64,000 nt of DNA from Vairimorpha necatrix (lineage: Eukaryota). The DNA lies in contig CP142729.1 in the NCBI GenBank assembly GCA_036630325.1, positions 186,001-250,000 on the forward strand, written 5' to 3'. Position numbers and translations under genes: made by a program. A model generated the notes under the pieces. The model was not told the DNA's origin, made no database searches, and saw nothing but the letters and a program-made list of their open reading frames with translations. Positions 2,585 to 27,343 of this stretch are shown piece by piece (positions within the stretch are counted from its first letter, which is position 1; every line of letters starts with the position of its first letter).

Positions 2585-3545
2585 GGCAGTCTGGTGGCCA
2601 AAAATCCCTTAAAAGGAATTTTTAAAAAAATCACCCCAAAAATGAAAAGTCAAGAGGAAAAACTTTTTGAAATTTTTTTAAAATATATTGAAAAAACAAG
2701 CAAATCATCTATAAAATGTGGTTCTATAAGTACAAAATATAATGAAAATTTTATTTTTCGATGTACTTGGTCTAAATGTAGAAGTAAATGGTCTTTATTA
2801 AAAAACACTCCATTCTACAATAACAAGCTTGGAATTAATACTATGTTATTAATTATTAAATCATGGTCTGTTAATGTAAAGTATAAAGCTATTGCGGAAT
2901 TTCTTGGAATTAGCATTAAAAGTGTAAGAAAAATCATTTCTTTAACAGTAAATTCCATCGAAAATTCTGTTTACGTCGAAACAGGTATAATAGGAGAACC
3001 TGGGATTGTTGTGGAAATAGATGAAAGTAAGTTTGGTAAATTAAAATGCCATAGAGGCCATGGGTAGAAGAGTTTGGATTTTCGGAATGGTAGAAAGAAC
3101 ACCTCAAACGAAAACTGTGTTTGTTCCTGTTGATAATAGAAGAGCAACTACACTAGAAGAACTTTTAAAAAAAATATGTTAACCCAGAATCTATCATACA
3201 TAGTGATTGCTTCTCTTCAAATTCTAGGTTGTGTTCAATTTTTCAACAACATAAGACGGTTAATCATTCAAAAGAATTTGTTAATAAAAATAATTCATGC
3301 CATACTAATACTATCGAAGGTAATTGGAGCGCTGTTAAAAGTGAAACTTCCATAAGGCATAGAACAAAAAAATTAATAAAGAGTTCTTTGTTAAGATTTA
3401 TGCTTAGAAGAAATTTTGAAGAAAATTTGTTTGATAAAATTATTAAAATGATTTTTAAGTTTTTATTTTTTTCCTCTTGACTTTTCATTTTTGGGGTGGT
3501 TTTTTTAAAAATTCCTTTTAAGGGATTTTTGGCCACCAGACTGCC
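2585..3545 (+). mobile_element. Merlin DNA transposon, second family
   Basis: 78-bp TIRs GGCAGTCTGG... (2585-2662 / 3468-3545, one mismatch). Encodes VEIDESKFGK, IIHSD and HTNTIEGNW. No matching TSD. Confidence 0.93.
2642..3480 (+). pseudogene. Merlin DDE transposase, frameshifted
   Basis: ATG at 2642 after CACCCC. ORF pieces 2594-3067 and 3229-3480 are joined by frameshifts near 3065 and 3175. N-terminal Cys motif (CTWSKC) and DDE motifs present. Confidence 0.88.
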
Positions 3546-8560: not shown

Positions 8561-9675
8561 TTTATAATTCTTTTAATTTTCACTTTTCTTTTTTTTATTG
8601 CGAATTCAAAATGGTAGACACCAATAAAAGTTAAAGTAAAACTTCATTTACAACTATTTATGGGAGGCGGTGCAGACTTTATATAATTATCAGGCAACAA
8701 AATATAGTTTTTAATCATTAATCAAAATTTACTTTAATAAAAAATAAAATAGAAAGAATTAAAGAAAATAAACATAACATATTTAATAATTTTCAATAGA
8801 CTGTCATATTCAAAGGGTTGACAAAAATAATGAATTTTTTAAAGGCTACAGAAATTGTAAAATCATTTAAAAAAATTTATAGAAATCTGAAACAATTTTA
8901 TCTGATTGCGTATATGGAAGTTTAATCACGAAAGCCTCTAAAGTCAAAAACCAGGCACATAACTTACTTCTTTTATGCATTAATAAAGAACCAAAAGAGT
9001 TGTAAGACGCATGATTTAAACACTTATGAAATAAAATAGGTCGTTAAAATGACATAACTTAAAGTAAAATATTTCAGAAAATATTTTTTTCCTACACAGA
9101 GCTATCACGGCAAGCTAATTATATATACAACACGTAAATTAATTAAATAAAATTTTGACTATAAAATTATACCAAAAAAAGTGTTCTAATAGCCAAAAAT
9201 AAGACAAGAAAAAAGGCTTTAAAACAATAACAACAAACATTAAAAAAAAAGAACCTGGGATTTTTTAAAAAGAAATAAGACATATTGATTAAGAATACTT
9301 GAAAAAAATGAAATACAAGAGGATCTCGTTAAAATTGATGCAAACCCCTTCAATCTATCAATAGTTATAAGAATGTTTGAACTTAAAAAACGTGAATAGA
9401 GACAGTTTTTAAAAGGCCGTGGAAGTTAATTATGTCCAAACAAATCATTATTATGCTATTTCTTGTTTGAAAACTTTTTTAGAATTTGTTCCGCAAATAA
9501 ATAGAAAAAAATAAAATAAAATATATATATATAATTACCATAAAATATTTGAAATTTTATATTTATTTGTAAATAAAATGTCGCGCGCGCGGGGCGCACG
9601 TGCGCCCAGCCCGCACACGGCCCAATTCCCGCTTTTTGAGCCATTTTTCATTTTTTTAAGGGTGCTTATGAAAAA

Positions 9676-9757
9676 TGGCTCGCGCGGGGATCGAACCCTT
9701 CCTCTTAAAATTTGACCAGTTCGTTTCAGAATTTCTGACCGCTGAGCTAAACTCAGT
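9676..9757 (-). ncRNA. tRNA-like Pol III unit inside the Ginger-like element (not a canonical tRNA)
   Basis: Minus strand has A box TAGCTCAGCGG, B box GGTTCGATCCC, then ...GAGCCA and TTTTT. Acceptor stem does not pair and T stem is only partial. Confidence 0.55.
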
Positions 9758-9831
9758 TATAAAAAAACCTTAAAAATATAAATAAGTTAAAAACAACACC
9801 ATTTTAAAAAATATTTCATAACATCCCTCAA

Positions 9832-11120
9832 ATGGTCTTACCTGTGAAAAACTCGGAAGAATATAAAAATATTCTAGATATTATTGTAGAAAACAAAGTC
9901 GTAAAATATATTTCGAGGTTTTCTTTGGCGAGATTAAGGAAAAAGGCTGAACACTTTACAATTGTAGATAATCATCTTTACTTAAGAGGTATCGACAATC
10001 TACATTTAAAGGTTTTTGCACAAACGGATATTTGTGCGATGAAGTTAGAAATGCAAAAACTTCACGTAGATGGGCATTTAGGTCAGAATGCCCTATACCT
10101 AAAAAGTAAATGTTTTTTTTTTCAATCCCAAGGGAATTGATACGTGATGTTGTACGTGAATGTAAAATTTGCGCTCAATGTCAGCCTTTGAAGACAAAGG
10201 AAAAAATGAAACATATTACAGCAGAATTTCCATGGGAACGCCTAATGATAGATCTTATTGATATGAGATCATACAAGGAGTTTAACGATGGGTATTGCTG
10301 GATATTATCTATTTTGGATGTATATTCAAAATTTGCCAGAACATATCCATTAAAAGGTAAGACAGCTGAGTGTGTTATAGAGTGTTTGGAGGATTTATTT
10401 GAACATTATGGTGTACCTGGGATCATTCAAAGTGATAATGGTAAGGAGTTTAGGAACAAATTGATGTATGATCTTGCATCAAAATATAAAATCCTTCTAA
10501 TAAACGGGAGACCTAGACATCCACAGACACAGGGTCAGGTGGAACGGTTTAACCAAACAATCACAAGGTTATTATCAAAAAAATTAATGGACGAAGAAAC
10601 ATCAGAACGAAGTGAAAGGTGGATTGATTGTCTAAAAAAGGTTACTAGTGTTTATAATCAAGCAGTTCATTCTGCGACTTCTTTTACTCCATTTGAGAAA
10701 ATGTTTAACAGAGCTGGTTACAACACAGTAGTTCGTAAAAATTTAGAACCTGAGAATAAAGTGTCTTTAGAGTTAGATAGAGAAATATGTCCTGTGTCTG
10801 TTGATAATGAAATCGATTGTGTTAAAAAGGAAGAAAAATCTAAAGAAGACTGTGTATTTTCGAGTTACCAAAAAAAATACTTTGCACGAATGGATAGACG
10901 CGCGGTACACAATTCTATTTATGATTTTGAAGTAGGTGATACTGTTTTATTGAAAAAAGATTTTGATAATAATAAAAAAACTAAGAAAAAAAAACTTGAA
11001 TCTTTCTATCATAAAGAGTCTATAGTAATAGAAATTTTATCTAACAATCGAGTAAAGTTAAATTTAGAAGGAAATGAAGTTATAGTAGATTTAAATTTGA
11101 TTAAAAAAATAAAAAATTAG
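9832..11120 (+). CDS. Retroviral-type integrase/transposase (H2C2 + rve DDE core), one frameshift at T10 run 10113-10122
   Basis: HVDGHLG in ORF 9832-10140; CKIC, MIDLID, QSDNGKEF and PQTQGQVERFN in ORF 10110-11120. CCC just upstream of the ATG. Confidence 0.88.
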
Positions 11121-12459
11121 TTTATATATTTTGTCAGTACTTTTACTTATAAGGATTCCCGAACCCAACATATTATCTTGAGTTTAAAAAGATTCCAATA
11201 TCAAAAATATTCCCATGCAAAGAAAAACTTCTGTAAATCTAAACAATTTAATTATCTTTTTAAAGTAAAACAAATCTATTATTTTTTATTCCTTAATTTT
11301 CCTTCGGAAAAAAAAATTGTTCTCACTGCGCTCGAACCCGGCAAAAACTTCGTTTTTGTGCGGGCCGGGCGCACGTGCGCCCTGGGCGCTTGACAGTTAA
11401 TAAATGTTTTTTTAATTTTTTTATGAAAAAAAACTAAAATTAATGAGAAAAGAACAAAAAAATTTAGAATTGTTGTATATATTAAAAAAGTATGTATTTG
11501 AACAAATCAAATATCATTTTCGTTTTGTTAATTTACTCTAAATCGAAAAAAAACTATGAATGCATTTATATAAAAACCTATCTTAAATAAGATATAAAGG
11601 GGAAGAATGGAACATATAACGTAACTTAAATAATACCTTTTTAGATTTGAATGAAACGAGAATTGAAAACTCACTACCAAAGTCTGAAGATTAATAAATA
11701 TTATTGGAATCTGGTTTTTATAATGAAATATGAGGTATTATAGCGACGGGGAAACAACATTGAAAAGCTCATGTGCACTTTAAACAATTATTTTGAGTTA
11801 TGTTTGCCTTTTGAAGAATTTTTTTTATTAGACATAAATGTGCATTTTTTAACATTTACACGTTTTCGTTTTATTACAACCTCTTTTTTTCAAATCAATA
11901 ATTCACGTAAATCACAATTTGTTCGTTTTTACAACGCAAATCTTTAATATTTTTTTATAGACAAAATTTAGTGTTTTTTATTGTCTATATACAAGATTTT
12001 CTGAAATATTTTAAAATATTTAAATTTATAATGACCAAAAACAATTTAGACAATTAAATTCTATGAGGTTATTTATTTATTTTTATGTACTAGACATGCG
12101 TTATAAAGATCAGCCTTTCATCATTTTTCTTATTTTTGCACATATAATTTTCTTTTTTTAATTTTTTTTTTAACGTGACTTTTGTTTCTCGTACCTTAAG
12201 TTCAATGTCGATATCTCTGTCTGCTAGACATCTATAATCATAAATTTTTTTTGTTTTAATTTTACTAATATTGCGCTAGATCATTTATCTAAACCTTCTA
12301 GTCTGTCTAAATTATTTTTACACAGTTGAATTAAACGACTTATTTTTTTTTTAAAAAATTGTTTTTAGTGGCTTTAGTCATAATGAAATTTTTTTACTAC
12401 TTTTTATAATTTTAATGTGCCATTTTTTTTTAATAATCTTATATTAGTAAATTTTTTTT

Positions 12460-13185
12460 TTATTTTAGTATGTCTTTAAATCTCGCCGTATTTATTTGTC
12501 TCCTCCCATTTACTACATCTCTACTTAGACTTCTTACTAAGTCTTGAATCCTGTACTTTACCCTAGGCTTCTCTTCTATTTCCATTTCTTTCCCTTCGCT
12601 CTCTACTCCTATATATATTACTTTATTTCCTACTTCTTTATATTCTTCTACTACTACACACATCTTGTCGCTATATTCTTCCTTATATTCTTCGTCTACC
12701 ATACATTCTATATTTAGTATCTCACAGAATAAGACCATCTTCTTATAATTTTTACATAATATTACTATATCTTTATATTTAAGATACATTAGATATAAAT
12801 AGTAGAAGTAGTCATTATTAGCACACTTGATTATATATTTATTAAAATTTAATATATTAGTACATTTTATTGTATTATTTTTTAGATATATAAAGTTAAA
12901 GCCCAAATTTTTAATATTAGATAAATGGTCTTTATAGCCGAATGTAGCCATAAGATCATAATCCTCTACTACTAAATGACTTGTTTTATGATCATTTAAT
13001 TGGGACTTTATAAAGTCTTTTGGGGTTATTTTTATGTACCCAGTGTTAGACTTCTTATAGACTTCTAAAATGTAAGGAATATTAGAAGATTGTGATTTAT
13101 GGGGAGTTAAGACTATGAGAAGAGATTTGAGATTATTCTGTAGAGTCTCAATACTATGATTTGTAGAATAATCAACCAACTTCAT
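12460..13185 (-). CDS. DBP9: Highly reduced Dbp9/DDX56-like DEAD-box protein (probably inactive)
   Basis: LVVEDYDLMATFGYKDHL resembles the Dbp9 motif II region as I recall it (LVVDEVDLVLTFGYQDDL). FYYLYLMYLK...MVLFCEILNI and KYRIQDLVRSLS match DDX56-type segments. CCCC upstream. Confidence 0.65.
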   Translation of the reverse strand: MKLVDYSTNHSIETLQNNLKSLLIVLTPHKSQSSNIPYILEVYKKSNTGYIKITPKDFIKSQLNDHKTSHLVVEDYDLMATFGYKDHLSNIKNLGFNFIYLKNNTIKCTNILNFNKYIIKCANNDYFYYLYLMYLKYKDIVILCKNYKKMVLFCEILNIECMVDEEYKEEYSDKMCVVVEEYKEVGNKVIYIGVESEGKEMEIEEKPRVKYRIQDLVRSLSRDVVNGRRQINTARFKDILK

Positions 13186-13439
13186 AAAAAAAATAAGGGG
13201 GCAAAAAATTATTAGCGACGAATGAATTGATTTTTAAAAACATTGAAGTTTGCATTTGTTAAAAAAATTAAAATTGACAAATAATATATTTAAAAAGACT
13301 GTATAAAATTTGTAAAAAACATTAAAGCGATTAATTTTTGATTTAAAAGATTATAAATCAACATATGCTTAAAAATTAAACAAAAAATTTTAATATTTTA
13401 TTTACTAGAGCTTTTATTGGTCTAGTCTTTAATTTTACC

Positions 13440-13735
13440 TCACTGCCGCGCGCATCTGGCCACACCACAAATCAATTGCCTCTACTAAGTTCTTGGTTTA
13501 GATCCTTCCTCGGCGAATCCCACTGGGTTCAAAGGAGATGCTCTCTAATGTCTTCTTTATAATTCTCATTTGAGGATACCTTCAGTACTAGGCCGATGGC
13601 ATTAACATAATTGCTGTGGTATTTTTCTTATGTCATGACGTATGGTATTATTTAATATATTTGTACATTAGGCCCAATTCATTTGCTAAGATATCGTACT
13701 TTCTAAGTTTTTCCTGTTCAACTTTCTGTATAAAA
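13440..13735 (-). mobile_element. 3' fragment of an RLE-type non-LTR retrotransposon
   Basis: Reads QKVEQEKLRKYDILANELGLMY..IPYVMT...IIKKTLESISFE, homologous to the copies at 24.2, 38.3 and 46 kb. Multiple stops. Confidence 0.65.
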
Positions 13736-13978
13736 TTATACATAATTTAAACTATTCATTATAAAAGATTTATTGAGTTAATTTATCATTAAGATTAGAT
13801 ATTCATAGCACAGCTTTCCCCGATATCGCTCATGGGATTCAGATCTTCACAGACGTTAATTTCTGTGGAATTATTAATGTTTTCCAACTTCGCTTTTCCA
13901 ACTTCATTCCCTTTTGAATAAGATTATGCTTAAACAAAATATTAAATAAAATTATGCATAAAATAAAATAATTTTCAA

Positions 13979-15967
13979 TTAAATGTTTAATTTCTCATTT
14001 ACTTCCTCACATATTTGCTCTTCATTAAATTCTTCCTCATTTATTTCTCTCAAATTAAGTTGACTTAAATTTTCTATAAATTTCTCAAGCTTATATTCCT
14101 TCTGTTTATTATTAATCCTCACATTTATACTTTCATTTTCTGCTTCTTTTTTTCCTATCACGCATACAAAACTGTATCCTTTCTTTATCAATATTCTCAG
14201 ATTTTTATTTAGTGTATTATTATCTCTTAATATTTCACATTTAAAATCTTTAAATTTTTCCCTTACTTTCTCCGTATATTTTTCATCCGCCAAAGAGACA
14301 ATCCCGACTTGTCTCGGGTTAATCCAAAAAGGCAAATTCTTCCCATAACTCTCTAAGAGTATGGCTATAAATCTTTCTACTGAACCCAAAATGGCTCTAT
14401 GAATTATAACAGGAGTCTTTTGATTTCCTTCGTCACTTCTGTATTTCAGTTTAAATCTTTGTGGTAATTGGAAATCTAATTGTATTGTCCCACATTGTAT
14501 TTTTCTACCTAAGGCATCTTGTAAAATTATATCAATTTTCGGGCCATAAAATGCCCCATCTCCTTCATTAATTTGATAATCGAAATTACATGCTTTTATT
14601 GCTTCTTCTAGAGATTTCTCGGCTTGATTCCATTCTTCAATTTCGCCTATAAATTTCTCGGGTCTGGTGCTCAAAAACAAAGAAAACTTGAAATTGAATA
14701 TTTCGTAAATGAATTTCAAGAAATCTAAACACCCAATAATTTCATTTTTGACTTGTTCTTTAGTACAAAAAATATGAGCATCATCTTGTTGAAACCTCCT
14801 GACTCTTGTTAAGCCTGTTAGTGCCCCACTTAGTTCATTCCTATGTAAAACACCAAAATCGGCGTATCTAATAGGCAAATCTCTAAAAGAATGATCAAAA
14901 TTCTTGAACATTAAACAATGTCCAGGGCAATTCATAGGTTTCATAGCCATATTTTCATTTTCTAAAATGAAAATATTATCTTTATAATTTTCATAATGTC
15001 CTGATTCTTTCCACAAATCAATACTAAAAATATTTGGACTTATAACTTCTTTGAAACCTCTTTTTTTATATTCTGATTTCATTAAATCCACTAATTTATT
15101 ATAAATAAAAGTACCATTTGGTAAGAAAAAACAAGACCCAGGACTATATTCATGAAAAAAAAATAAATCTAATTCTTTACCTATTTTCCTATGATCTTTA
15201 TTTTTTGCTTCTTCATTTAATTTTATAAAATTTTTCAATAATTCTTTATTTGGAAATGTTATTCCGTAAATTCTTTGTACTTGATTTTCGTTATGATGAA
15301 CTGAAGAATTTTTCAATATTTTTACAGCTTTAATTTTCCCAGTACTAAAAATGTGTGGACCTTTACAAAGATCAAAAAAATCCCCATTTTTATAAACAGT
15401 TGAGCCTTCTGAAACTTTTGTATTTACAAAATGTAATTTGTATGGATTATTTTTATACATTTCTAGTAGATCTGATTTTTTATAATAAATTTTCTGAAAT
15501 TTATAATCTTTTTTGATTATTTTATACATTTCATTTTCTATATTTTTATAATCTTCTTGAGATATTGTTTTTTCTATGTCTATGTCATAAAAAAAGCCAT
15601 TTTCTAAGGGGGGACCCTTTATGAGCTTACAATTAGGAAATAAGTTTACTAGAGCCATGCCGAGGACATGGGCAGAACTGTGCCAGAAGATGTCTTTACA
15701 TTCTTCGAATGTGCAGAATGACAACTTGTTATCATTCTGTAAGATAGTAGAGAGATCAGAGAAATCTCCATTTATTTTACACATGAGAATATCAGAGAGA
15801 TCAGTGAATTTATTAAGGAAATCATAAGCAGAGAAATTTGACTTAATTTCGTATATTTTATTATTATAAGATATTTTAATAATATCTGATATTCCAGAAT
15901 TCAAGCTTTGTAGATTTGATTGAGACAAATTTAAATTTGATTTAGACATTTCACACGGTTCAGACAT
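13979..15967 (-). CDS. THS1: Threonyl-tRNA synthetase
   Basis: TGS and editing domains (FWHSSAHVLG, DLCKGPH), MKPMNCPGHC, LHRNELSG, RRFQQDDAH, GAFYGPKID, IHRAILGSVERF. Start placed at the ATG following CCCC (15967) rather than the upstream GTG. Confidence 0.97.
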   Translation of the reverse strand: MSEPCEMSKSNLNLSQSNLQSLNSGISDIIKISYNNKIYEIKSNFSAYDFLNKFTDLSDILMCKINGDFSDLSTILQNDNKLSFCTFEECKDIFWHSSAHVLGMALVNLFPNCKLIKGPPLENGFFYDIDIEKTISQEDYKNIENEMYKIIKKDYKFQKIYYKKSDLLEMYKNNPYKLHFVNTKVSEGSTVYKNGDFFDLCKGPHIFSTGKIKAVKILKNSSVHHNENQVQRIYGITFPNKELLKNFIKLNEEAKNKDHRKIGKELDLFFFHEYSPGSCFFLPNGTFIYNKLVDLMKSEYKKRGFKEVISPNIFSIDLWKESGHYENYKDNIFILENENMAMKPMNCPGHCLMFKNFDHSFRDLPIRYADFGVLHRNELSGALTGLTRVRRFQQDDAHIFCTKEQVKNEIIGCLDFLKFIYEIFNFKFSLFLSTRPEKFIGEIEEWNQAEKSLEEAIKACNFDYQINEGDGAFYGPKIDIILQDALGRKIQCGTIQLDFQLPQRFKLKYRSDEGNQKTPVIIHRAILGSVERFIAILLESYGKNLPFWINPRQVGIVSLADEKYTEKVREKFKDFKCEILRDNNTLNKNLRILIKKGYSFVCVIGKKEAENESINVRINNKQKEYKLEKFIENLSQLNLREINEEEFNEEQICEEVNEKLNI

Positions 15968-16583
15968 TTTATTAAGGGGCCAAGAAAAAAAAGAATTTAA
16001 ATAATTACGAAACACGTAACAAAAATAAAAAAAATATCAATTTTATAATGAATTATATTAGATTGATCTTTAGAAACATTCACTCTATTAAAATATGAAC
16101 ATATTTTCCTATGATGTAGTGCGCTTTTATATTGTTTCTTTTTAGAACTAATACTTACAATTTTATTAAATGTCAAAAAATGATTTATATTAATTAACAA
16201 ACAAATTTGAAAGAAAGCAGAAGATTGAACACTTATGAGATTTGCATAAAAAACATAAGGTTTTATTGTACTCAAAAGTATGATTTATCATCAACCAGTA
16301 TCGACTTACTACACTTTTTTTTTGCAAATTAGTTATAATAAATAATCATGTCTAATTGACCAATAGACAAGAATATAATCAGAGTGTTTTTTTCATTTTA
16401 TACTTGTTTTTTTTTTTGGAAGTCATGCCCACGAGAAAGAAGTTTCTCTCTTCGGTCTGCATTTAATCCGAAACTTGAAAGATAAAAACAAAAAGTATAT
16501 TTATCGTAGGATGCTTGTGTAAATAATACATTACTAATAATTTTCTTATATGTTATATATAAATGACATCATTTATTCTTTAT

Positions 16584-17069
16584 TTATATGGGACCAAAGG
16601 AGTTTATACAGTCTATCTCAGATTCTAATGTCCTTATTAAATTGTCATGTAGACCTTTTATTTTTGTGTGTAAACTTTTAGATTCTTTTTTATTCATCGA
16701 AACAGACTGATGACATTTCGATGTATCAGTCTGTTGATTTGCCGCTTTCTTTATTTCGTTTATTATCTCCTCTATCTTCGTCTTTAGTTCTAAGTTTGTT
16801 ATCATTTCTGAAGTTATCGTCAATACTTGAAAATTTTTATCATTAAATTCCAAATATTCTTTTATCTTTTCTTCTACCTTCCTAAATCTAGTGTCTTCTT
16901 TATAATGTTCTCTTATCTTTTCTTTATAGTCTTTTAGTGCTTGTAAATTGACTTCGTGTATTATTATGAAATCATTTAAGAGATCTTTTGCTTCAAATGA
17001 CTCTGATACTATTTTCCATATGAAACAAGTAAAGATCATTGTAAGAAACCAGAATATAAATTTAAACAT
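16584..17069 (-). CDS. Hypothetical protein with N-terminal signal/anchor and helical body
   Basis: 161-aa ORF with a hydrophobic N-terminus, 24 bp downstream of the acetyltransferase stop. Confidence 0.7.
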   Translation of the reverse strand: MFKFIFWFLTMIFTCFIWKIVSESFEAKDLLNDFIIIHEVNLQALKDYKEKIREHYKEDTRFRKVEEKIKEYLEFNDKNFQVLTITSEMITNLELKTKIEEIINEIKKAANQQTDTSKCHQSVSMNKKESKSLHTKIKGLHDNLIRTLESEIDCINSFGPI

Positions 17070-17093
17070 ATAAAAAAGGAGATAGCTCCTTTT

Positions 17094-17555
17094 TTATATG
17101 TTTAAATTTGTATATTTCATTAGTAAAGCTAGTGCTCCATTTTCATAATATGACACCTCTTTTATAATCTCAAATCCTTGTTTAATATAAAATTCTTTAG
17201 CTTGTAAGTTACTTGATCTTACATATAGACTTATACTCCTTATATTTAAGGAGGTGGCTTCTTCCTTGACTATCTCCATTAATCTTGTACCAATACCATT
17301 TGTCCTGTATGGGAAGTCTACACAGAGAACATGACACTGTAAAACGGTGTCATGTTCTCTAGTATCTTGTATAGTACAAGAAATATTGCCTATTACTTTA
17401 TTATTGTGGAGACAGACATAATGAAATCTTCCGGAAGTATCAAATAGATCATTAAGGAATATTAATGGGACGAGATTCTCCTCAAGATTCCTATTTATAA
17501 GATTTATAACATTATTAATATCAGACAAGATCATCTTTCTGAACTTAATAAACAT
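17094..17555 (-). CDS. GNAT N-terminal acetyltransferase (NAA10/20/30-like catalytic subunit)
   Basis: LCVDFPYRTNGIGTRLM (acetyl-CoA motif A), LYVRSSNLQAKEFY, YYENG. Start at CCCATG (17555). Confidence 0.85.
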   Translation of the reverse strand: MFIKFRKMILSDINNVINLINRNLEENLVPLIFLNDLFDTSGRFHYVCLHNNKVIGNISCTIQDTREHDTVLQCHVLCVDFPYRTNGIGTRLMEIVKEEATSLNIRSISLYVRSSNLQAKEFYIKQGFEIIKEVSYYENGALALLMKYTNLNI

Positions 17556-17767
17556 GGGTAAATCATTCAAAATGTTATATAGTACCAATATATTAATAAG
17601 ATATATTGTACTAATATTATCTAGTTATATATACAATATTATTTTACTATTAAAATTTTTTTTTTTATTTGTGCATTTTTTTACTAATATTTAGTTCATA
17701 ATAATGTACCAATAAGATACTTGTTTCATATAAATTTACATATAAAAATATCATTTCTCTTTATAAA

Positions 17768-18085
17768 ATGGTATGTTGCATTCTATGTGGAGCAAGAAGT
17801 GAATCAAAAAGAATAGGAAAACCAGAAGGATTTCCAGACGCACCAGAGAAAATATTATGTCCGAGATGCGGGACTATAGCAGAAGGAGAATATAGGAAAG
17901 CATACGATAGATTCTGTGTTTGTATAATCCCATGTTGCTGTAAATGTAACAAAACAGAGCCATTTGTGGCTTGCTCGAATTGTCATGAGCCTATAGGCGT
18001 CATAACAGGGAACAAATGCAGGCAATGTTCAGTGGCCACGTCTTTTAGATCGCAGAACTGCCCGAACTGCGGAGCAAGAAAGTAG
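17768..18085 (+). CDS. Small cysteine-rich zinc-ribbon protein
   Basis: CPRCG, FCVCIIPCCC, CSNC, CRQC, CPNCG; G+C higher than flanks. Confidence 0.8.
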   Translation: MVCCILCGARSESKRIGKPEGFPDAPEKILCPRCGTIAEGEYRKAYDRFCVCIIPCCCKCNKTEPFVACSNCHEPIGVITGNKCRQCSVATSFRSQNCPNCGARK

Positions 18086-18374
18086 AAATAAAAAATAAAA
18101 AATAAAGCATTTTTATATACACCAACAATTTAGATTAGATCTAATTTATATATATTTTATTCTATAATTTCTAAATCTAATTTTTATAATACAGTCAAAT
18201 TATAACTTTTGTTATACATATTTAATATGTCAAATATGATATCTTATCAAATTTTGTCGTATATTGAGTTATATCTTATATGATCTATCTATCAAATTTA
18301 TTATGTATGATCTATCTATATTATTTATTATATATTTTATAATCTCTTAGTGTAATCATCTCTTTATAATATTT

Positions 18375-19259
18375 CTACTTGTGGGGCTCATTCTTGTGGC
18401 TCATGTACTTGGCCACCACATGATAAAACTCGGCGAGAGTAAAAGGCTTCTTAATAAAATCTGTCACTCCTATAGAATAAACATCAAAATCTAAATTATC
18501 ATATCCAAGATAAATTACGGGTGTCATAAAATCAAATCTCCTTATAAATCTCATAACTTCTTTAAGTAAAATACTATTCCCCCCTAAAACTATAAAATCA
18601 AACTTAATACTCTTTAAAACACTAAACAAATTATTCTTATTCTCAATAATCATAATATTAATCTTCTTATTCTTTAACAAATTATAAATATGTATTGACA
18701 TACTTGTATCCTCATCAAAAACAATAACTGACATATAAAAAACTTTCTCTTCTTTAAATAACTTATTCTTAATCTCATTAATATTATCAACTAATAAACT
18801 AAACTTCTCTGATAAATCTTTAATATTTTCAATAATATGACCCTGAAAAAGCTTATATGACTCAATACCAGGCAACAACTCAAAATCTTTACTGGCTGCT
18901 TCATGAGATGAACTCTTTCTTTTAATTTTATACAATTGATTCCTTTTTCCTCTTTGGAAATACATATGCTCAAATTCAAGTACTTGTTTTCCATATTGAG
19001 AAATTAAAAATTTACTACTTTTTATCTTATGGAAATCATACTTGTTAAGTTGTCTAATAAAAGAAGACAAATTTTTATGTCTAAAAAAAGACTGTAAAAT
19101 AACATCAGCAAACCCTTGGGGATTGACAATTATAAATGAATGACCAGTCATATTCCAGACTATAAAGTCTTTGTTATTGACATCTTCTAAAATGTCATAT
19201 AATTTTTTCACAAATTCTTTGGTTTCTTTGGGTTGCATTTTGAAAAGATTGGGATTCAT
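18375..19259 (-). CDS. HSF-type DNA-binding protein with C-terminal receiver-like domain (Skn7/Prr1-like)
   Basis: FVKKLYDILED...FRHKNLSSFIRQLNKYDFHK...HMYFQRG; short coiled coil; receiver fold ending GVTDFIKKPFT. Confidence 0.9.
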   Translation of the reverse strand: MNPNLFKMQPKETKEFVKKLYDILEDVNNKDFIVWNMTGHSFIIVNPQGFADVILQSFFRHKNLSSFIRQLNKYDFHKIKSSKFLISQYGKQVLEFEHMYFQRGKRNQLYKIKRKSSSHEAASKDFELLPGIESYKLFQGHIIENIKDLSEKFSLLVDNINEIKNKLFKEEKVFYMSVIVFDEDTSMSIHIYNLLKNKKINIMIIENKNNLFSVLKSIKFDFIVLGGNSILLKEVMRFIRRFDFMTPVIYLGYDNLDFDVYSIGVTDFIKKPFTLAEFYHVVAKYMSHKNEPHK

Positions 19260-19875
19260 GCAGGAAAAAAAAATATTTTTTATTTATGTAGGAGAATTTG
19301 TTGGTTAACAAACAAACTCATGAGATATGTCAAACTAGAAAAAAATGAATAATTAATTTGAGTGAAAAATGACAAAATTTATATAAATATTATTTTGTAT
19401 GACTCGATGATATAATACTAGTAACGTGATTTGATCAAAAAATTATTTAGTTTAATGACAATATTTGACGGAAAATTTATTTCATTTTTGTGTTTTAATA
19501 TATTTGAAAAAATTTAAAAATGAATTCGAGTTATACTTGGCATTTAAGCTAGTAACTTGGTCGATATGCGTCAAATATATCAAATGCCCCGTCATAAATC
19601 ATAAAAATATTGCCAATTAAAACAAAATTATTTTTATTTTGAAAATTTAAAGAATAAGTGGTGCTAGGATAAAAACTTGGTCTACTTAGTGCAAAATAAA
19701 AAGAAACGACATGTCAAATGCATCAAAACGATGACACATCTATTTGACATGTGTAGAACCTTTTAGAAAAGAAGCAGAAAAGTATAATTATATATGGAAA
19801 TTATTATTTGTTATAATTTTTCTTTAATTTTAAGCATGTATGGAAAATAAATGCCAAATGATTAACGAGTGACCC

Positions 19876-21365
19876 TGTTCGTGCGCGATCGAATTTTTTT
19901 CTATTTTTAGATCCTAACTACAATTTTTAACATTTAATTTCGGTATTTGTATTTATACAAATAATTGTATATTTATTTAAATTAACTATTTATGATTTTA
20001 TTCAATTACTTAGATTTAATTTATCGATCCCTAAATAAATTTTTGACTCGTCGGGATTCGAACCAGTGACTTTCGAAAAAACGAAGTCCCATAACAACCA
20101 CTTACCAAGTTAGATTATGAACAATTTTTGTATTTATTTATAATTTAGTGCTAAAATTTAAAGCCAGATTTACTTTTTTAACCCATTGAAAGAAGTAAAG
20201 GACTAATTTTAACATTGTCCGCTTGTGAATACACTTAAATGAAATAGAAAAGCCTGGAAATTGACAAAAATTCTAAATAACAGCTAAAAAAGGAATACCA
20301 AAGTTTTAATCAGGTAGACAACATTCTTTTCTTGAAAAATGTATAGGCTAACACAAACGAGTATTTGTGAGTACCATAGTCCAATCTATAAAATAAAAGT
20401 CCCAGGATGTCATTAGAAGCATCGTTTTGGCGCGAACCACCTCTACGATAAGTGTAAAGAAAATTACTTTAGTATATCTAGGTGTTTTGTAAGTGAGGAT
20501 TGCAAAGAATGCAATATAAGCATGCAAGCACAACGCCTAAAAAGATTAGTTTTAGCACATTATCGCTAAGAGACCTTTTGAAAGATTTATTATTGATCTT
20601 ATTGCAATGAGGGCTTATAGTCGTTAAAATGATGGTTTTAGTTGGATACTGACAGAAATAGATTTATTTTTTACATATTCTTTTATCTCTGCTTTGAAAA
20701 CATAATTCGCCGTGGAAGTCGGATCAAGATTAGAATACAAATTTCAAACGTAAAATATTCTTGCTATACTTCAATGTGACAGCGGCAAAGAGTTTAAAAT
20801 GAAACATTAGTCGAATTTTGCTCATTTATGGCAGCCCTTGTCATCTCCTGAGTCAGAACAAGTTGAGAGGGTTAATCAACGTCTATACGTTACCTGAAAA
20901 AAACATTTTACGGAAAATATTATATCAATAAGAACTATCTATCATTCATTTAAAGTTGTTTATGATTATAACACTGCTGTACACACTGCTACAAAAAAGT
21001 CTCTTTCAATTTATCGGCACGGAAGCCTCGGATACAATTTTTGTCTGAGGGATAATGATGATTTTACTGATGAGAATGAAACAAAATCAAACACGATTCC
21101 GGCATGAAATTTAGTGAGTAATAAAAATTGCCTAGCTGTAATCGACAGAAATGTGTATATAATTCTCAGTTGATTTTTCTATTGGGGATTTAGTAGTCGT
21201 AAAAAAAAATTATGACACTGAAATTAAGACAAAAAACTAAAATTAAGTTTTTTTATAGTGAGCCAAGGAAAATAATAGAAATTATATTAAATAACCGAGT
21301 AAGGCTAAAATACGACGGTAATGAAAAAAAGGATCAATGAATTTAGTTTAAAAATTAAAAAAATA
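19876..21365 (+). mobile_element. Decayed second family of Ginger-like integrase transposon
   Basis: Left end TGTTCGTGCGCGATC. Pseudo-integrase GANHLYDKCKENYFSISR..CKEC, IIDLI, QCDSGKEF, QVERVN is colinear with 9832-11120. Right end may be ...ATCGCGCGACA at 22386. Confidence 0.78.
20043..20122 (-). promoter_or_regulatory. tRNA-like B-box unit in the second Ginger-like element
   Basis: Minus strand GGTTCGAATCCCGACGAGTCA, a perfect B box, at the same position and orientation relative to the integrase as 9676-9757. Confidence 0.55.
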
Positions 21366-22449
21366 TGTCTTCGGATAGGTTATACTTTGTGTTATATCAT
21401 AAATTTTGATTTTTATAATCTTTATTAATATACTTTGCATATTAAAAACGGCATTTAGTGTTTTTATTTATAAGTAATAGTTTGTTTTGAACAAGGAATG
21501 TTTCTGTAAAAACGATAAGACTAATGCAGTTTTTCTTATATAAATCAATTTTTATAATATACATGTTGTGCGATCCTCTATAGAAAAAAGTGCAAAAATA
21601 GCAAATAACAACTTACTTGCAAAATATTCTTTCTTAATTGGAATCTTTGTATACTTTTAATTACTGAGTATCGTATACGTAATCTTAAAAAGATTATAAG
21701 ACGCTTACATAAACTAAAATGAAGTTTTGTGAACTCAAAATTATTCATTTCATTATCTAAAACTTTGTATATGAACATCACTTCATGTATACATTTCTTG
21801 TTTTTTCAATTTATTTAGAAAGATAATAAATACTCGAGGTTAAAGCTGTTACGTTTAAGCAAAAAATTGTTTTTAGTTTATATATATAAAGTCCTTACCT
21901 TTCTTTTATATTGTTTATGAAAATTCTTGAAAATTGGCTTTTAATTAAATTCTAAGAATTTCAGAAGCTAATTTAAAAAAAACAAACGGGAAAGTGAGCT
22001 AACTGAGTAAAATATAAGAAAAAGCTGAAATTTATTATACTTATAACTTTGTAAAAATAATATTATAACATATAAATGTAACTTAGTAGGTTATAGAATA
22101 ATCAGACATCAGCTCTCTGTTATGATCTTTTGCACTCATATAAGTTAAAAAACGTGGCCAATTTGACAAATCCCTACTTTGTATCCAAAAATCTATTTTA
22201 ATGTTTTATATGTTCATAATGTAAGTGGGCGTGGCGCTAGTAGAGTGTTTCTATATAGATAAGGTCTTTTTGTATAAAATTTGTTTATAATACATTTAAC
22301 CCCCAAAATAGAAGTTAAATTGATTACACTATATGCTGTATACCGATTTTGTTAAAATTCTTCCGGTTGCGCGCCATCGCGCGACAATAATTAGACAATT
22401 TTAATCTTACTCTTTTTAGATTAGCAAATAAATAGTCAATGTTCTTATT

Positions 22450-24655: not shown

Positions 24656-24976
24656 TAATCTTCATTTATAATATGAAGCAAACATTTTACTGTAATTTTA
24701 TGTTGATATTGTATTTAAATTTTCTCGTTTACTACTGATTTTTGTTTTTTTTATTGATGATCGTTTTTTGTATAATTTAATAAAGCTCAATAACAGAAAT
24801 GTTTCTTAAAAATACTATCAATTCTTGTATTTGTTAGACATTTATTGTTGGTTCAATCTCCCCATTTTATACATGCAATAAATTTATTAAAAAAAGAGGT
24901 TTTGCGAATTTCTTCTATTAATATTGTCTAAATTGGAATACCTGATTCCAATGAGACATATTTTGATAATTATAGG

Positions 24977-25177
24977 TGTTACCAGAAGGAGAGCTGGTTA
25001 TTGAAGAAGGCTTTTTATTAGAAGAAGAACTATATTTATTTGGCATGTTTATTCTATTTAAGATTTCTTAAATAGTTTTAGTTTCGGATCTGAAACAATC
25101 ATGTTTCAGATCATTATGATTTGTTTCATCTTTCAGTTTTAGTCTGATTATTGGTGTGTGCAACACAGCCGGTAACA
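24977..25177 (-). repeat. 3' LTR
   Basis: Identical by eye to 27143-27343; preceded by a polypurine tract on the minus strand. Confidence 0.95.
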
Positions 25178-27212
25178 CTCTCCCCTCCTTAGAACAAGGC
25201 TTCACTTCCAGGGAAGATGTTATATTCTCCAATATATCGTCGTCTTTCTTATATACTACAAAATCATTTCGGTTTATAGAGTGTTCTATTCCATCTTCAA
25301 GACTCCTTACTTCATAGGCTCCTTTTAGTTTGTTTTTTGTGACTATGTAGGGTCCTATATAAATTTTATCCAATCTTTCATTTCTATATAATGTATGGTA
25401 AGACATTAGGAACTTTTTACGTGGCTTCTTGAGGATATTGTACGTTATTCTTTTTAACCTTTTTCTCGAGTTATCTAATCCATAGGGGATGATATTCCAC
25501 AGTAATTTTCCTGTAAATTTCGGCCTAAAAACAACATCATTTTTTGGCACGATTGATGCGTGAGCGCTTCGAGCGACCGTATCTTCCTCGCTCGCCACGC
25601 TTTTAAATGGTCGTATAGGGATTTCTTTATTTCCTTCATACCCACTTAATTCCTTTCTCAAGGGTATCTGATAGTATCTGTTTTCCAGGTCGAGCTGTTG
25701 GTTTATTTTCGTGCTACTTAGATAAACCCAACGCGCAGTTAATCCAGATTTGGCCTTGTTGTACTTTGTTCCATTAAACTCTTTAAAATCTATGCATAGT
25801 TGCATACAGTCGACCCCTTCCGTTGCGATTACAGCGGGTGTTTGGTAGTATCGCCTTTCCGGGTCGAGCTGGCGGTTCAATTTCACTGTACTCAAATATG
25901 TAAAAGATTCTTCAAACAACTGAGGTTGACATACTTCTTCAATCATGGTTTCTTTTGCTTTTGTATCTTCATTGCATAGGCGCACACCATCGTCTCTTTT
26001 CGTTACGATCGATTTTAATGAGTCCTTGGTGCTCGTATAGTCGTCTCTTCCCGCGCTTTTATTTACTTGCGCAATGTTTGGGTGGTTTCCATCGTGTCCA
26101 AGTATGTTCTTTTGCAAGCAAACAATATGCCTGCTGGTCGATGCACTCATCTCGGTTAATCTCGGATTTCGATACTGAAGTGAGATCTGAGCTGTTTCTG
26201 TACTTGCTCTTTTTTTAATCCGCATATCTTCTTGTTTTGACACTCTTTTGTCTATACTCTGTGGATAGTTTCGAATGCATTGGCCTCCTTTAGCCCTTCT
26301 TAGTTTCTTTCTATTAACTAAGGTTTTATCAACAAATGAGTTAAATTCACCTGATCCCAGGCGCATTCTTACTACATCGCCATTAACGGTTCCTTCGACT
26401 GTAGTATCGTTCGTGTCTCTTGACACCGGATCTGCCTCGATTAAAAACACCTCTATTTCCTCGTGTTTATTGCAGTCCTTAAGCAAGTGCTCACCTCCGC
26501 ACTTATAGCATACTACCTTTCTCAGACTCTCTTTCGTCCGTGTAGTATCTGGCCTCGAAGTCCTTGCTTCCCTTGGCCTATTCTGTTCAGGTCTCTGCCT
26601 TGAACTCTCAATAAATTTATGATTTCTCTCATAAATCTTTAGTACAACGTCCCATGACGTTGCCTCTTCCACCTTTTCTTTAAGTGACGGTGGGAAATAT
26701 CTAGCCAACTCCTCCGTAATTTCAGACACGCTAACTCCTGCTTTCTTGTTAAGCTTCATTAGTTCGTATATAAAGTTTTCAATTTTCATATTTACAGGTC
26801 CAGAGTATAGTCTCTTATAAAGCATTTTAATGGGATTAATTCCCTCCCGGAATTCTTCTTTCCCATATTTTGTTAGAAATTTCTGTTTGAATTCCATATA
26901 TCCTTCCACCTCGTCTTCAATTACAGCCTCATACCATAGGAGAGCTGATTCCCCTAAGTATCTCTTAATGTAGTTGAGCAGTTTTATATCATTCCATTCT
27001 CCCTCGAGGTATTTAAATTGATTAATCCAGACCCATGCATTCTCGCCTTGGGTACCGTTGAATTTCACCATTGTGTTAGTAGATATCCCTAATTTTTCTA
27101 GTAGGTGGCCCAATTCGTTGGATTTCGAATAGTTGTCGCCAGTGTTACCAGAAGGAGAGCTGGTTATTGAAGAAGGCTTTTTATTAGAAGAAGAACTATA
27201 TTTATTTGGCAT
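25068..27212 (-). CDS. Gag-like protein fused to dead protease, RT and integrase remnants
   Basis: Zinc knuckle CYKCGGEHLLKDC; LGSG in place of LDSG; RT-like LCIDFKEFN, LDLENRYYQIP and IPYGLDN; no YxDD; GPY motif. Confidence 0.85.
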   Translation of the reverse strand: MPNKYSSSSNKKPSSITSSPSGNTGDNYSKSNELGHLLEKLGISTNTMVKFNGTQGENAWVWINQFKYLEGEWNDIKLLNYIKRYLGESALLWYEAVIEDEVEGYMEFKQKFLTKYGKEEFREGINPIKMLYKRLYSGPVNMKIENFIYELMKLNKKAGVSVSEITEELARYFPPSLKEKVEEATSWDVVLKIYERNHKFIESSRQRPEQNRPREARTSRPDTTRTKESLRKVVCYKCGGEHLLKDCNKHEEIEVFLIEADPVSRDTNDTTVEGTVNGDVVRMRLGSGEFNSFVDKTLVNRKKLRRAKGGQCIRNYPQSIDKRVSKQEDMRIKKRASTETAQISLQYRNPRLTEMSASTSRHIVCLQKNILGHDGNHPNIAQVNKSAGRDDYTSTKDSLKSIVTKRDDGVRLCNEDTKAKETMIEEVCQPQLFEESFTYLSTVKLNRQLDPERRYYQTPAVIATEGVDCMQLCIDFKEFNGTKYNKAKSGLTARWVYLSSTKINQQLDLENRYYQIPLRKELSGYEGNKEIPIRPFKSVASEEDTVARSAHASIVPKNDVVFRPKFTGKLLWNIIPYGLDNSRKRLKRITYNILKKPRKKFLMSYHTLYRNERLDKIYIGPYIVTKNKLKGAYEVRSLEDGIEHSINRNDFVVYKKDDDILENITSSLEVKPCSKEGRVLPAVLHTPIIRLKLKDETNHNDLKHDCFRSETKTI

Positions 27213-27343
27213 GTTTATTCTATTTAAGATTTCTTAAATAGTTTTAGTTTCGGATCTGAAACAATCATGTTTCAGATCATTATGATTTGTTTCATCTTTC
27301 AGTTTTAGTCTGATTATTGGTGTGTGCAACACAGCCGGTAACA
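27143..27343 (-). repeat. 5' LTR
   Basis: Followed on the minus strand by PBS TGGCGACAACT (27141-27131). Confidence 0.95.

Follow-up and report, generated by a model that had tools for sequence, protein, structure and literature searches.

Ginger2/Tdd DNA transposons are described as carrying an integrase-only ORF with an H2C2 finger and a DDE core, together with TGT termini, terminal inverted repeats (TIRs) and AT-rich targets (Bao et al. 2010, PMC2836005), and the main text of that paper contains none of the terms ‘tRNA’, ‘promoter’ or ‘microsporid’. In the Leishmania U2 system, as described in PMC4950102, divergent tRNA-like A/B boxes without a cloverleaf drive the neighbouring gene, and yeast TFIIIC sites have been described as insulators and barriers (PMC3395662). 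Among retroelements, which depend on an RNA copy, captured RNA polymerase III (Pol III) promoters are known. Here we analyse a 64-kb stretch of the microsporidian Vairimorpha necatrix (CP142729.1, positions 186,001 to 250,000; hereafter the window, whose coordinates are used throughout), from an AT-rich genome of 15.0 Mb in 12 contigs. Two integrase-coding elements in it carry a pair of tRNA-type A and B boxes upstream of, and antisense to, the transposase gene.

Integrase-coding elements and their families

The window holds a young and a decayed element, designated element 1 and element 2, with the following parts.

9579..11395, plus strand: element 1, a young F2 copy with TGT..ACA ends and a 39-bp TIR
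9832..11120, plus strand: transposase gene of element 1, with H2C2 zinc finger and rve core, frameshifted (Pfam rve, E 1.9e-13)
19852..22386, plus strand: element 2, a decayed full-length Ginger2/Tdd-like transposon of family F3, 2535 bp, delimited by global alignment to the F3 copy L015; right end CGCGCGACA
19852..19896, plus strand: left TIR of element 2, decayed, 66% identical to the left end of L015, 19/33 G/C sites kept
20186..21366 (end approximate), plus strand: rve-type integrase/transposase remains of element 2, with many stops and frameshifts (tblastn pieces 20348–21325)
22342..22386, plus strand: right TIR of element 2, ending in ACA

Element 2 is flanked by ATAAA and ATAAT, a target duplication matching at 4/5 positions, and its 5′ end is ~70% identical to its nearest relatives. 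Element 1 is without the 5-bp target duplication of most sister copies (9574–9578 / 11396–11400) and is frameshifted early in the transposase; in seven sister copies this frame is open over 437 aa. Its family, F2, comprises 13 loci, most of them 98–100% identical at the protein level.

A protein search of the genome with the transposase gave 132 matches, and the closest named homologues among the protein matches were from Nosema granulosis, Dictyocoela and Enteropsectra. For the family survey we took 30 loci from the protein search, 60 further regions and element 2, setting aside most long-ORF gypsy-type matches, the duplicates L014 and L019, and L140. The 89 surveyed loci cluster into F0 (32), F1 (15), F2 (13), F3 (9, including element 2), F4 (7), F5 (7) and singletons (6). 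Both ends were located for 48 elements, all of which have TGT..ACA termini and TIRs, many reading TGTCG or TGTGG, within or near TGTNR. An AT-rich 5-bp target duplication flanks 33 of 41 F0–F4 elements, and a 4-bp duplication 6 of 7 F5 elements. F0–F4 measure 1.7–2.6 kb with TIRs mostly of 20–48 bp, between which lies a single transposase ORF of about 430 aa that matches Pfam rve, is without RT or RNase H, and has H78, H82, C111, C114, D144, D202 and E238 as invariant residues (H2C2 finger and DDE core).

Because the TGT..ACA ends, the TIRs and the 5-bp or 4-bp AT-rich duplications match the description in PMC2836005, F0–F4 and F5 fit Ginger2/Tdd-like DNA transposons by their described hallmarks, our trees being built from the sequences gathered here. 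The 5-bp duplications of F0–F4 are as in TDD-4 and TDD-5, and those of F5 are 4 bp (PMC2836005). Membership of Ginger1 was ruled out, since the targets are AT-rich and not a CCGG/CCGT duplication. Integrase cores are 40–66% identical across the four box-carrying families F1–F4 and 51–54% identical between F2 and F3, the families of elements 1 and 2, which bears out the earlier statement that the two integrases are well diverged. The young F5 family (L096–L102; 2.75 kb, TIRs up to 155 bp, TATA-like 4-bp duplications) groups in the tree with rotifer proteins and not with the other families in the genome, so that horizontal acquisition from an animal is possible.

The window contains further repeats. 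At 24976–27343, two identical 202-bp direct repeats flank a 721-aa minus-strand ORF with no Pfam match, which looks like a young non-autonomous LTR element. Inverted-repeat-bounded units with 93-nt and 78-nt arms, 98–99% complementary, lie at 1333–2358 and 2585–3545, the latter overlapping a transposase-like fragment with an IDESKFG motif that we take to be Merlin/IS1595-like. Between 30700 and 41500, paralogous units recur every ~3.5 kb (repeat families D4 and D14), apparently a tandemly arranged family of lineage-specific genes encoding acidic tails.

Survey of the A and B boxes

We scored box pairs with A- and B-box matrices trained on 47/48 distinct host tRNA sequences, for which the joint score is 18.4–41.6. 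The survey window was a fixed antisense stretch upstream of the integrase, and a joint A+B score of at least 17 was counted as high. The parts of the two units are listed below.

9638..9681, no strand: 14-bp inverted repeat after the unit of element 1, with a T5 run, F2 only
9686..9697, minus strand: motif GGTTCGATCCCC of element 1, with its B-box GGTTCGATCCC at 9687..9697
9739..9749, minus strand: A-box TAGCTCAGCGG of element 1, joint score 40.2
11328..11338, minus strand: weak B-box look-alike GGTTCGAGCGC near the right end of element 1, with a B score of 14.6 and a joint score of 16.0, without the invariant C61
20044..20114, minus strand: A+B box unit of element 2, putatively tRNA-derived, facing the left tip and away from the transposase
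20053..20064, minus strand: motif GGTTCGAATCCC of element 2, with its B-box GGTTCGAATCC at 20054..20064
20068..20088, minus strand: imperfect hairpin GACTTCG-TTTTTT-CGAAAGTC, private to element 2
20098..20107, minus strand: A-box TGGTAAGTGG of element 2, one base deleted relative to the family form TGGCACAGTGG
20182..20188, plus strand: CCC motif and start codon of element 2, decayed to TTG (20186), aligning in register with CCCTCTATG of F3 copies

A high score was obtained for 33 of 44 copies of F1–F4 (F1 8/15, F2 11/13, F3 9/9, F4 5/7), the remaining two F4 copies scoring 13.6 and 16.6, and upstream of the integrase in 0/32 F0, 0/7 F5 and 0/6 singleton loci. The B-box is weakened in the main lineage of F4 (scores 0.2–11.3). 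In F0a a B-box without an A-box was found in 11/11 copies, and outward-facing B-boxes lie at both ends, 52–69 and 80–82 bp from the tips; F0b has a 5′ unit in 0/21 copies and a single B-box at the right end only. The A-to-B spacing of the units is 41–46 or 52 nt, compared with 42–45 and 53–54 in the host, and their scores are within the host range. The 52 nt of element 1 are near the host Leu/Ser-type spacing of 53–54. The look-alike GGTTCGAGCGC probably stands outside the module.

As background we used the 64-kb window and ten stretches picked at round coordinates (161 kb, 1,066 windows, both strands), in which only elements 1 and 2 exceeded 20 and four windows reached at least 15. When the 64-kb window was taken alone, with up to 2 mismatches allowed, at least 2 matches occurred in 22/100 shuffles; two motif matches in the window are thus weak evidence, and it is the family survey that carries the argument. 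Counted over the whole genome, the B-box pattern is present 249 times and its reverse 50 times, much of the excess being tRNA genes and a separate SINE family. This high-copy tRNA-headed SINE (L122–L135, L137, L138, L140 and genome-wide) has at least 40 scored copies at 93–100% among 283 candidates, with older subfamilies also present and copies inside L022 and L028. L022 and L028 each seemed to have a second full tRNA-like unit at their 3′ end; this is in fact an insertion of that SINE, and was discarded as an element part. A further A/B-like unit (L121:1511, minus strand) lies in a repeat common to the near-contig-end loci L086, L090 and L101 that matches neither the integrase nor the main SINE.

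The unit is neither a functional tRNA gene nor an inserted SINE copy. ARAGORN found 0 tRNA genes in the 64-kb window, and Rfam gave no tRNA match at E≤5 for 9000–22000 or at E≤1 at six other element loci; the stems are unpaired, so that there is no cloverleaf. There is likewise no SINE body behind the units, in contrast to the genuine SINE insertions of L022 and L028, and no SINE-head likeness outside the boxes. In element 2 the joint score is 23.6, within the host range, and the four stems pair at 2/7, 4/4, 3/5 and 3/5 positions. Its B-box is the commonest host tRNA B-box (11/47) and is identical to that of L015 at 11/11 positions, with G/C sites kept at 6/6 compared with about two thirds elsewhere, a difference not significant alone. 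No TTTT follows the unit.

These results bear on much of the initial annotation, whose two minus-strand motifs are both present at the positions listed. It had named as refutations a family that lacks the motif and a motif equally common in unrelated DNA; the motif is in 9/9 F3 copies, and the background held no further window above 20. Its term ‘tRNA-like’ is apt for the promoter boxes, and does not extend to a folded tRNA-like RNA (ARAGORN, Rfam, stem pairing). The hairpin that it reported exists at 20068–20088, but is imperfect and copy-specific. Its position is occupied by other letters in F3 relatives, its final five letters AAGTC (20072–20068) descend from AGGTC of the tRNA variable loop, and folding of the 76-nt unit is on a par with shuffled sequence (z = +0.49; 133/200 fold as well), which rules the hairpin out as part of the module. 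The A-box at 20098–20107 and the element ends at 19852 and 22386 are additions to that account.

In F2 the unit is CCA-ended and directly followed by T5 plus the hairpin, and the 146-nt region of element 1 has a folding z of −4.74. This ending, with a complete A+B promoter, is what a gene for a short functional RNA would look like. We consider such a gene highly improbable, as across the families there is no common fold, sequence or terminator, and no Rfam match. The plus strand of F2 reads TGG followed by the complement of a tRNA 3′ end, as would a left-over retroelement primer-binding site; that, however, needs no A-box, the CCA end occurs only in F2, and the elements have TIRs and no RT. 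Equally, Pol III might transcribe the transposase itself, as with trypanosomatid U2, the distance from A-box to start (66–92 bp) being comparable to that in Crithidia U2, for which 105 bp is cited. Against this, the coding strands contain 10–12 runs of at least four T, the first within 87–119 nt. Either of the last two readings is hardly credible, and with a coding strand so full of T runs the transposase is presumably transcribed by Pol II.

Conservation, position and possible role of the unit

With boxes picked by score, which inflates identity contrasts, representatives of F1, F2, F3 and F4 are 76% identical in the A-box and 79% in the B-box, compared with 27% and 22% in the spacer and 35–40% in the AT-rich flanks. 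Comparison of four sister-lineage pairs gave matches at 73/88 box sites and at 447/719 other positions (Fisher p 8e-5), an effect overstated by the high scores of the copies chosen. The A-box of F1 alternates between two host-type forms, TGGTCGAG and TAGTCTAG. The units have 9–13 of 21 stem positions paired, whereas host tRNAs have at least 19. TTTT follows 60/60 host tRNA genes; it is found within 40 nt of the F2, F4 (L112) and F0 units and is absent after those of F1, F3, L095 and the coral-type elements described below. Conserved boxes amid scrambled spacer and stems point to a selected module, and their conservation without a conserved RNA fold or end suggests a protein-binding DNA element. 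From these comparisons of sequence, the unit is very probably a selected, tRNA-derived box pair.

Outside the boxes, likeness to host tRNAs or to the SINE was no better than for shuffles in 7/8 tests, the exception being F1 L024 against tRNA-Pro (4/200 shuffles), and there is thus no support for a recent origin of the unit from any one host tRNA or from the SINE. The variable-loop motif AGGYC, which 12/48 host tRNA sequences have at that place and which occurs at 0.05% of background sites, is kept exactly beside the B-box in F3, F1b, the left end of F0a and the three coral units shown (3/3), and its survival there marks tRNA ancestry. As non-box tRNA sequence that has persisted, it would also fit the passive, functionless persistence of an old tRNA or SINE-head insertion, as would the many copies and whole families without a unit and the abundance of tRNA-SINEs in the genome. 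Such a neutral relic is nevertheless rather unlikely: between families the boxes remain 76–79% identical and the spacer and stems are randomised, likeness to host tRNA or SINE outside them is absent bar the one F1 case, and position and strand recur in corals. Were it true, the unit would be a footnote on Ginger2 anatomy in microsporidia.

From G52 of the B-box, the start codon lies 135 bp away in element 1 and, decayed to TTG, 122 bp away in element 2; the initial annotation, which described the antisense, divergent placement, gave ~125–140 bp. The G52-to-start distance is 107–135 bp in 22 of 23 copies from five lineages, the remaining copy having no recognisable start, whereas the distance from tip to G52 ranges over 52–391 bp overall and 118–391 bp in F1–F4. 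A fixed distance to the start codon and a variable one to the tip suggest that the unit is tied to the transposase promoter. Between A-box and start codon lies an AT-rich gap of 65–90 bp, and nearly all copies have a CCC or GGG run ahead of the start codon, which is described as an initiation motif (PMC5499648). In the F1 copies L021, L065 and L076, a common foreign insertion ~75 bp upstream of the ATG, partly tandem, displaces the A/B unit; its end (a hairpin, then CTAG) is presumably Helitron-like.

The same distances bear on a role in transposition, in which end-bound TFIIIC would aid transpososome assembly or recruit the gypsy-like integrase. The integrase of Ty3 is recruited by Pol III factors, and the outward B-boxes at both ends of F0a and at the right end of F0b would suit such a cofactor. 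In F1–F4, however, it is the tip distance that varies and the ATG distance that is fixed. Nor do insertions lie near tRNA genes (0/62 loci within 5 kb of 63 Rfam tRNA matches), and targeting of tRNA genes was ruled out, as median distances are also no shorter than random. We judge a cofactor role quite improbable.

A cut-and-paste transposon needs no RNA copy, and its conserved A/B boxes therefore point to a role at the DNA level, namely promoter opening, insulation or repression. We propose that an ancestor would have captured a tRNA gene or tRNA-SINE head in opposite orientation directly upstream of its transposase gene, and that selection would have retained only the type-2 Pol III promoter boxes. 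At type-2 genes, TFIIIB takes up a position immediately upstream. Host TFIIIC would thus bind the boxes and set TFIIIB/TBP in the AT-rich gap between A-box and CCC-ATG, and the result would be a portable open promoter and/or boundary that allows expression of the Pol II transposase gene at whatever site the element enters, with a short unstable antisense RNA as a possible by-product. That the unit is a candidate TFIIIC/TFIIIB landing site opening or shielding the transposase promoter we hold to be an even chance. Tau95 and BRF1 are encoded in the host genome; a search of it for the B-block-binding subunit of TFIIIC (PF04182) gave no match, which divergence may explain, and host tRNA B-boxes are canonical despite this.

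Several observations count against the promoter-opening reading. The A-box of element 2 is damaged, and the main lineage of F4 is weak. The F2 copies L002 and L005 share a broken B-box and have intact 437-aa frames, so that this variant seems to have moved without a B-box. F0b, F5 and the outside relatives L192 and L272 have no 5′ unit, PF04182 was not detected, and the B-boxes without A-boxes at both ends of F0a fit an end function as well. Lastly, the trypanosomatid precedent, an analogy, drives a Pol III gene and not a Pol II gene.

The broken-B-box variant, found at two loci with intact frames, would also suit self-restraint, in which a Pol III complex dampens the transposase promoter, or antisense RNA feeds a host Argonaute pathway, and activity is kept tolerable. 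Yeast tRNA genes silence nearby Pol II promoters, the host has a Piwi-domain protein, and the anatomy and the tie to the ATG would be the same. We nonetheless regard self-restraint as unlikely, since F2, the youngest family and the most uniform, has a unit that is among the strongest, and since the unit faces away from the coding region, so that its RNA would not be antisense to the transposase mRNA.

Relatives outside the genome and comparison with known systems

Alignment-based scans gave 136 outside loci, 89 with a locatable core and upstream DNA. Four of the 89 scored at least 17, antisense in 4/4 and none sense, while among long pol-like outside loci the count was 0/31. A single-protein scan of metagenome contigs and coral-alignment scans of genome and viral contigs gave no matches. 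The coral-type units are as follows.

L202:79, minus strand: coral-type unit, first family
L203:994, minus strand: coral-type unit, first family
L210:622, minus strand: coral-type unit, second family
L217:811, minus strand: coral-type unit, second family

The cores of the two families are 59% identical, and L217 has TG..CA inverted ends. The units are antisense, lie 166–180 bp upstream of the ATG and are without a cloverleaf. The integrases are 23–26% identical to those of the microsporidian families, with protein relatives in Nematostella, Porites, Montipora and Acropora. In the closer outside relatives L192 and L272 the unit is absent. In a tree of 32 sequences gathered here, from which five missed by the motif search were omitted, the coral clade, F5 and rotifer proteins group together (UFB 96), apart from microsporidian F0–F3 (UFB 100), with weak deeper nodes.

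The unit is likely ancestral for F1–F4. Beyond these families repeated capture is as plausible as one origin with losses, because F0b and F5 have no 5′ unit and the coral clade is on another branch. Animal genomes are rich in tRNA-SINEs and the background was measured outside corals, so that the coral recurrence is suggestive as support for the module. Recurrence of the unit at one position and on one strand, in a parasite related to fungi and in elements of coral type with such distant integrases, suggests a repeated solution. The initial annotation had inferred an ancestral functional module from positional conservation; of this, the selected box pair and a likely ancestry within F1–F4 hold, support for ancestry ends with F1–F4, and the function is our proposal.

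More tentatively, and with the balance of probability somewhat against it, Ginger2/Tdd elements may have taken up a pared-down tRNA promoter as a chromatin module that travels with them, at least twice (in microsporidia and in corals) or since an early eukaryotic ancestor, with TFIIIC/TFIIIB, assembled head-to-head with the transposase gene, licensing its Pol II transcription at any site. If true, this would be a general, undescribed route by which cut-and-paste elements escape position effects, and natural evidence of Pol III factors serving a divergent Pol II promoter. The unit would offer a compact, testable model for the effect of TFIIIC on Pol II genes next to it, and the design of insulated transposon vectors may profit from it.

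Our literature search turned up no account of A/B boxes in Ginger elements or in TIR transposons of other kinds, although Repbase annotations, subscription papers and supplements (e.g. of PMC4202319) could hold one; the accessible text of PMC2836005, PMC4202319, PMC3845634 and PMC5753468 makes no link between Ginger elements and tRNA boxes. As described, Helenus/TRIMp3 is likewise a mobile element whose Pol III promoter derives from a small RNA, with sequence conservation at the A and B boxes and no functional tRNA fold (Kojima 2024, PMC10886601, whose main text contains neither ‘DNA transposon’ nor ‘Ginger’), and Cassandra likewise captured such a promoter (10.1101/2023.07.14.548913). Both differ in being retroelements, in which the Pol III promoter presumably serves to produce the template RNA, whereas the elements here are autonomous TIR DNA transposons that need no RNA copy and whose unit faces away from the coding region. 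Membership of Helenus/TRIMp3 (LTRs, PBS and PPT, non-autonomous) is ruled out for TIR-bounded, integrase-coding elements.

The trypanosomatid snRNA promoters, in the account of PMC4950102, share the head-to-head arrangement and conserved A/B boxes ~100 bp from the neighbour's start. Their neighbour, however, is a host Pol III snRNA that needs the boxes, while here it is a T-rich transposase gene with a putative dependence. Yeast ETC sites and tDNA insulators, as described in PMC3395662, are similarly TFIIIC-binding B-boxes that lie apart from functional tRNA genes and shield Pol II genes or regulate them, and the B-only ends of F0a resemble ETC sites. Those, in contrast, are fixed host loci and not transposon-borne, and most units here also have an A-box. 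In anatomy, the A/B-box unit of these TIR DNA transposons is comparable to the divergent promoter of Leishmania U2 and to yeast ETC sites, and as a captured Pol III promoter in a mobile element it has parallels in Helenus and Cassandra; we regard it as a member of none of them.
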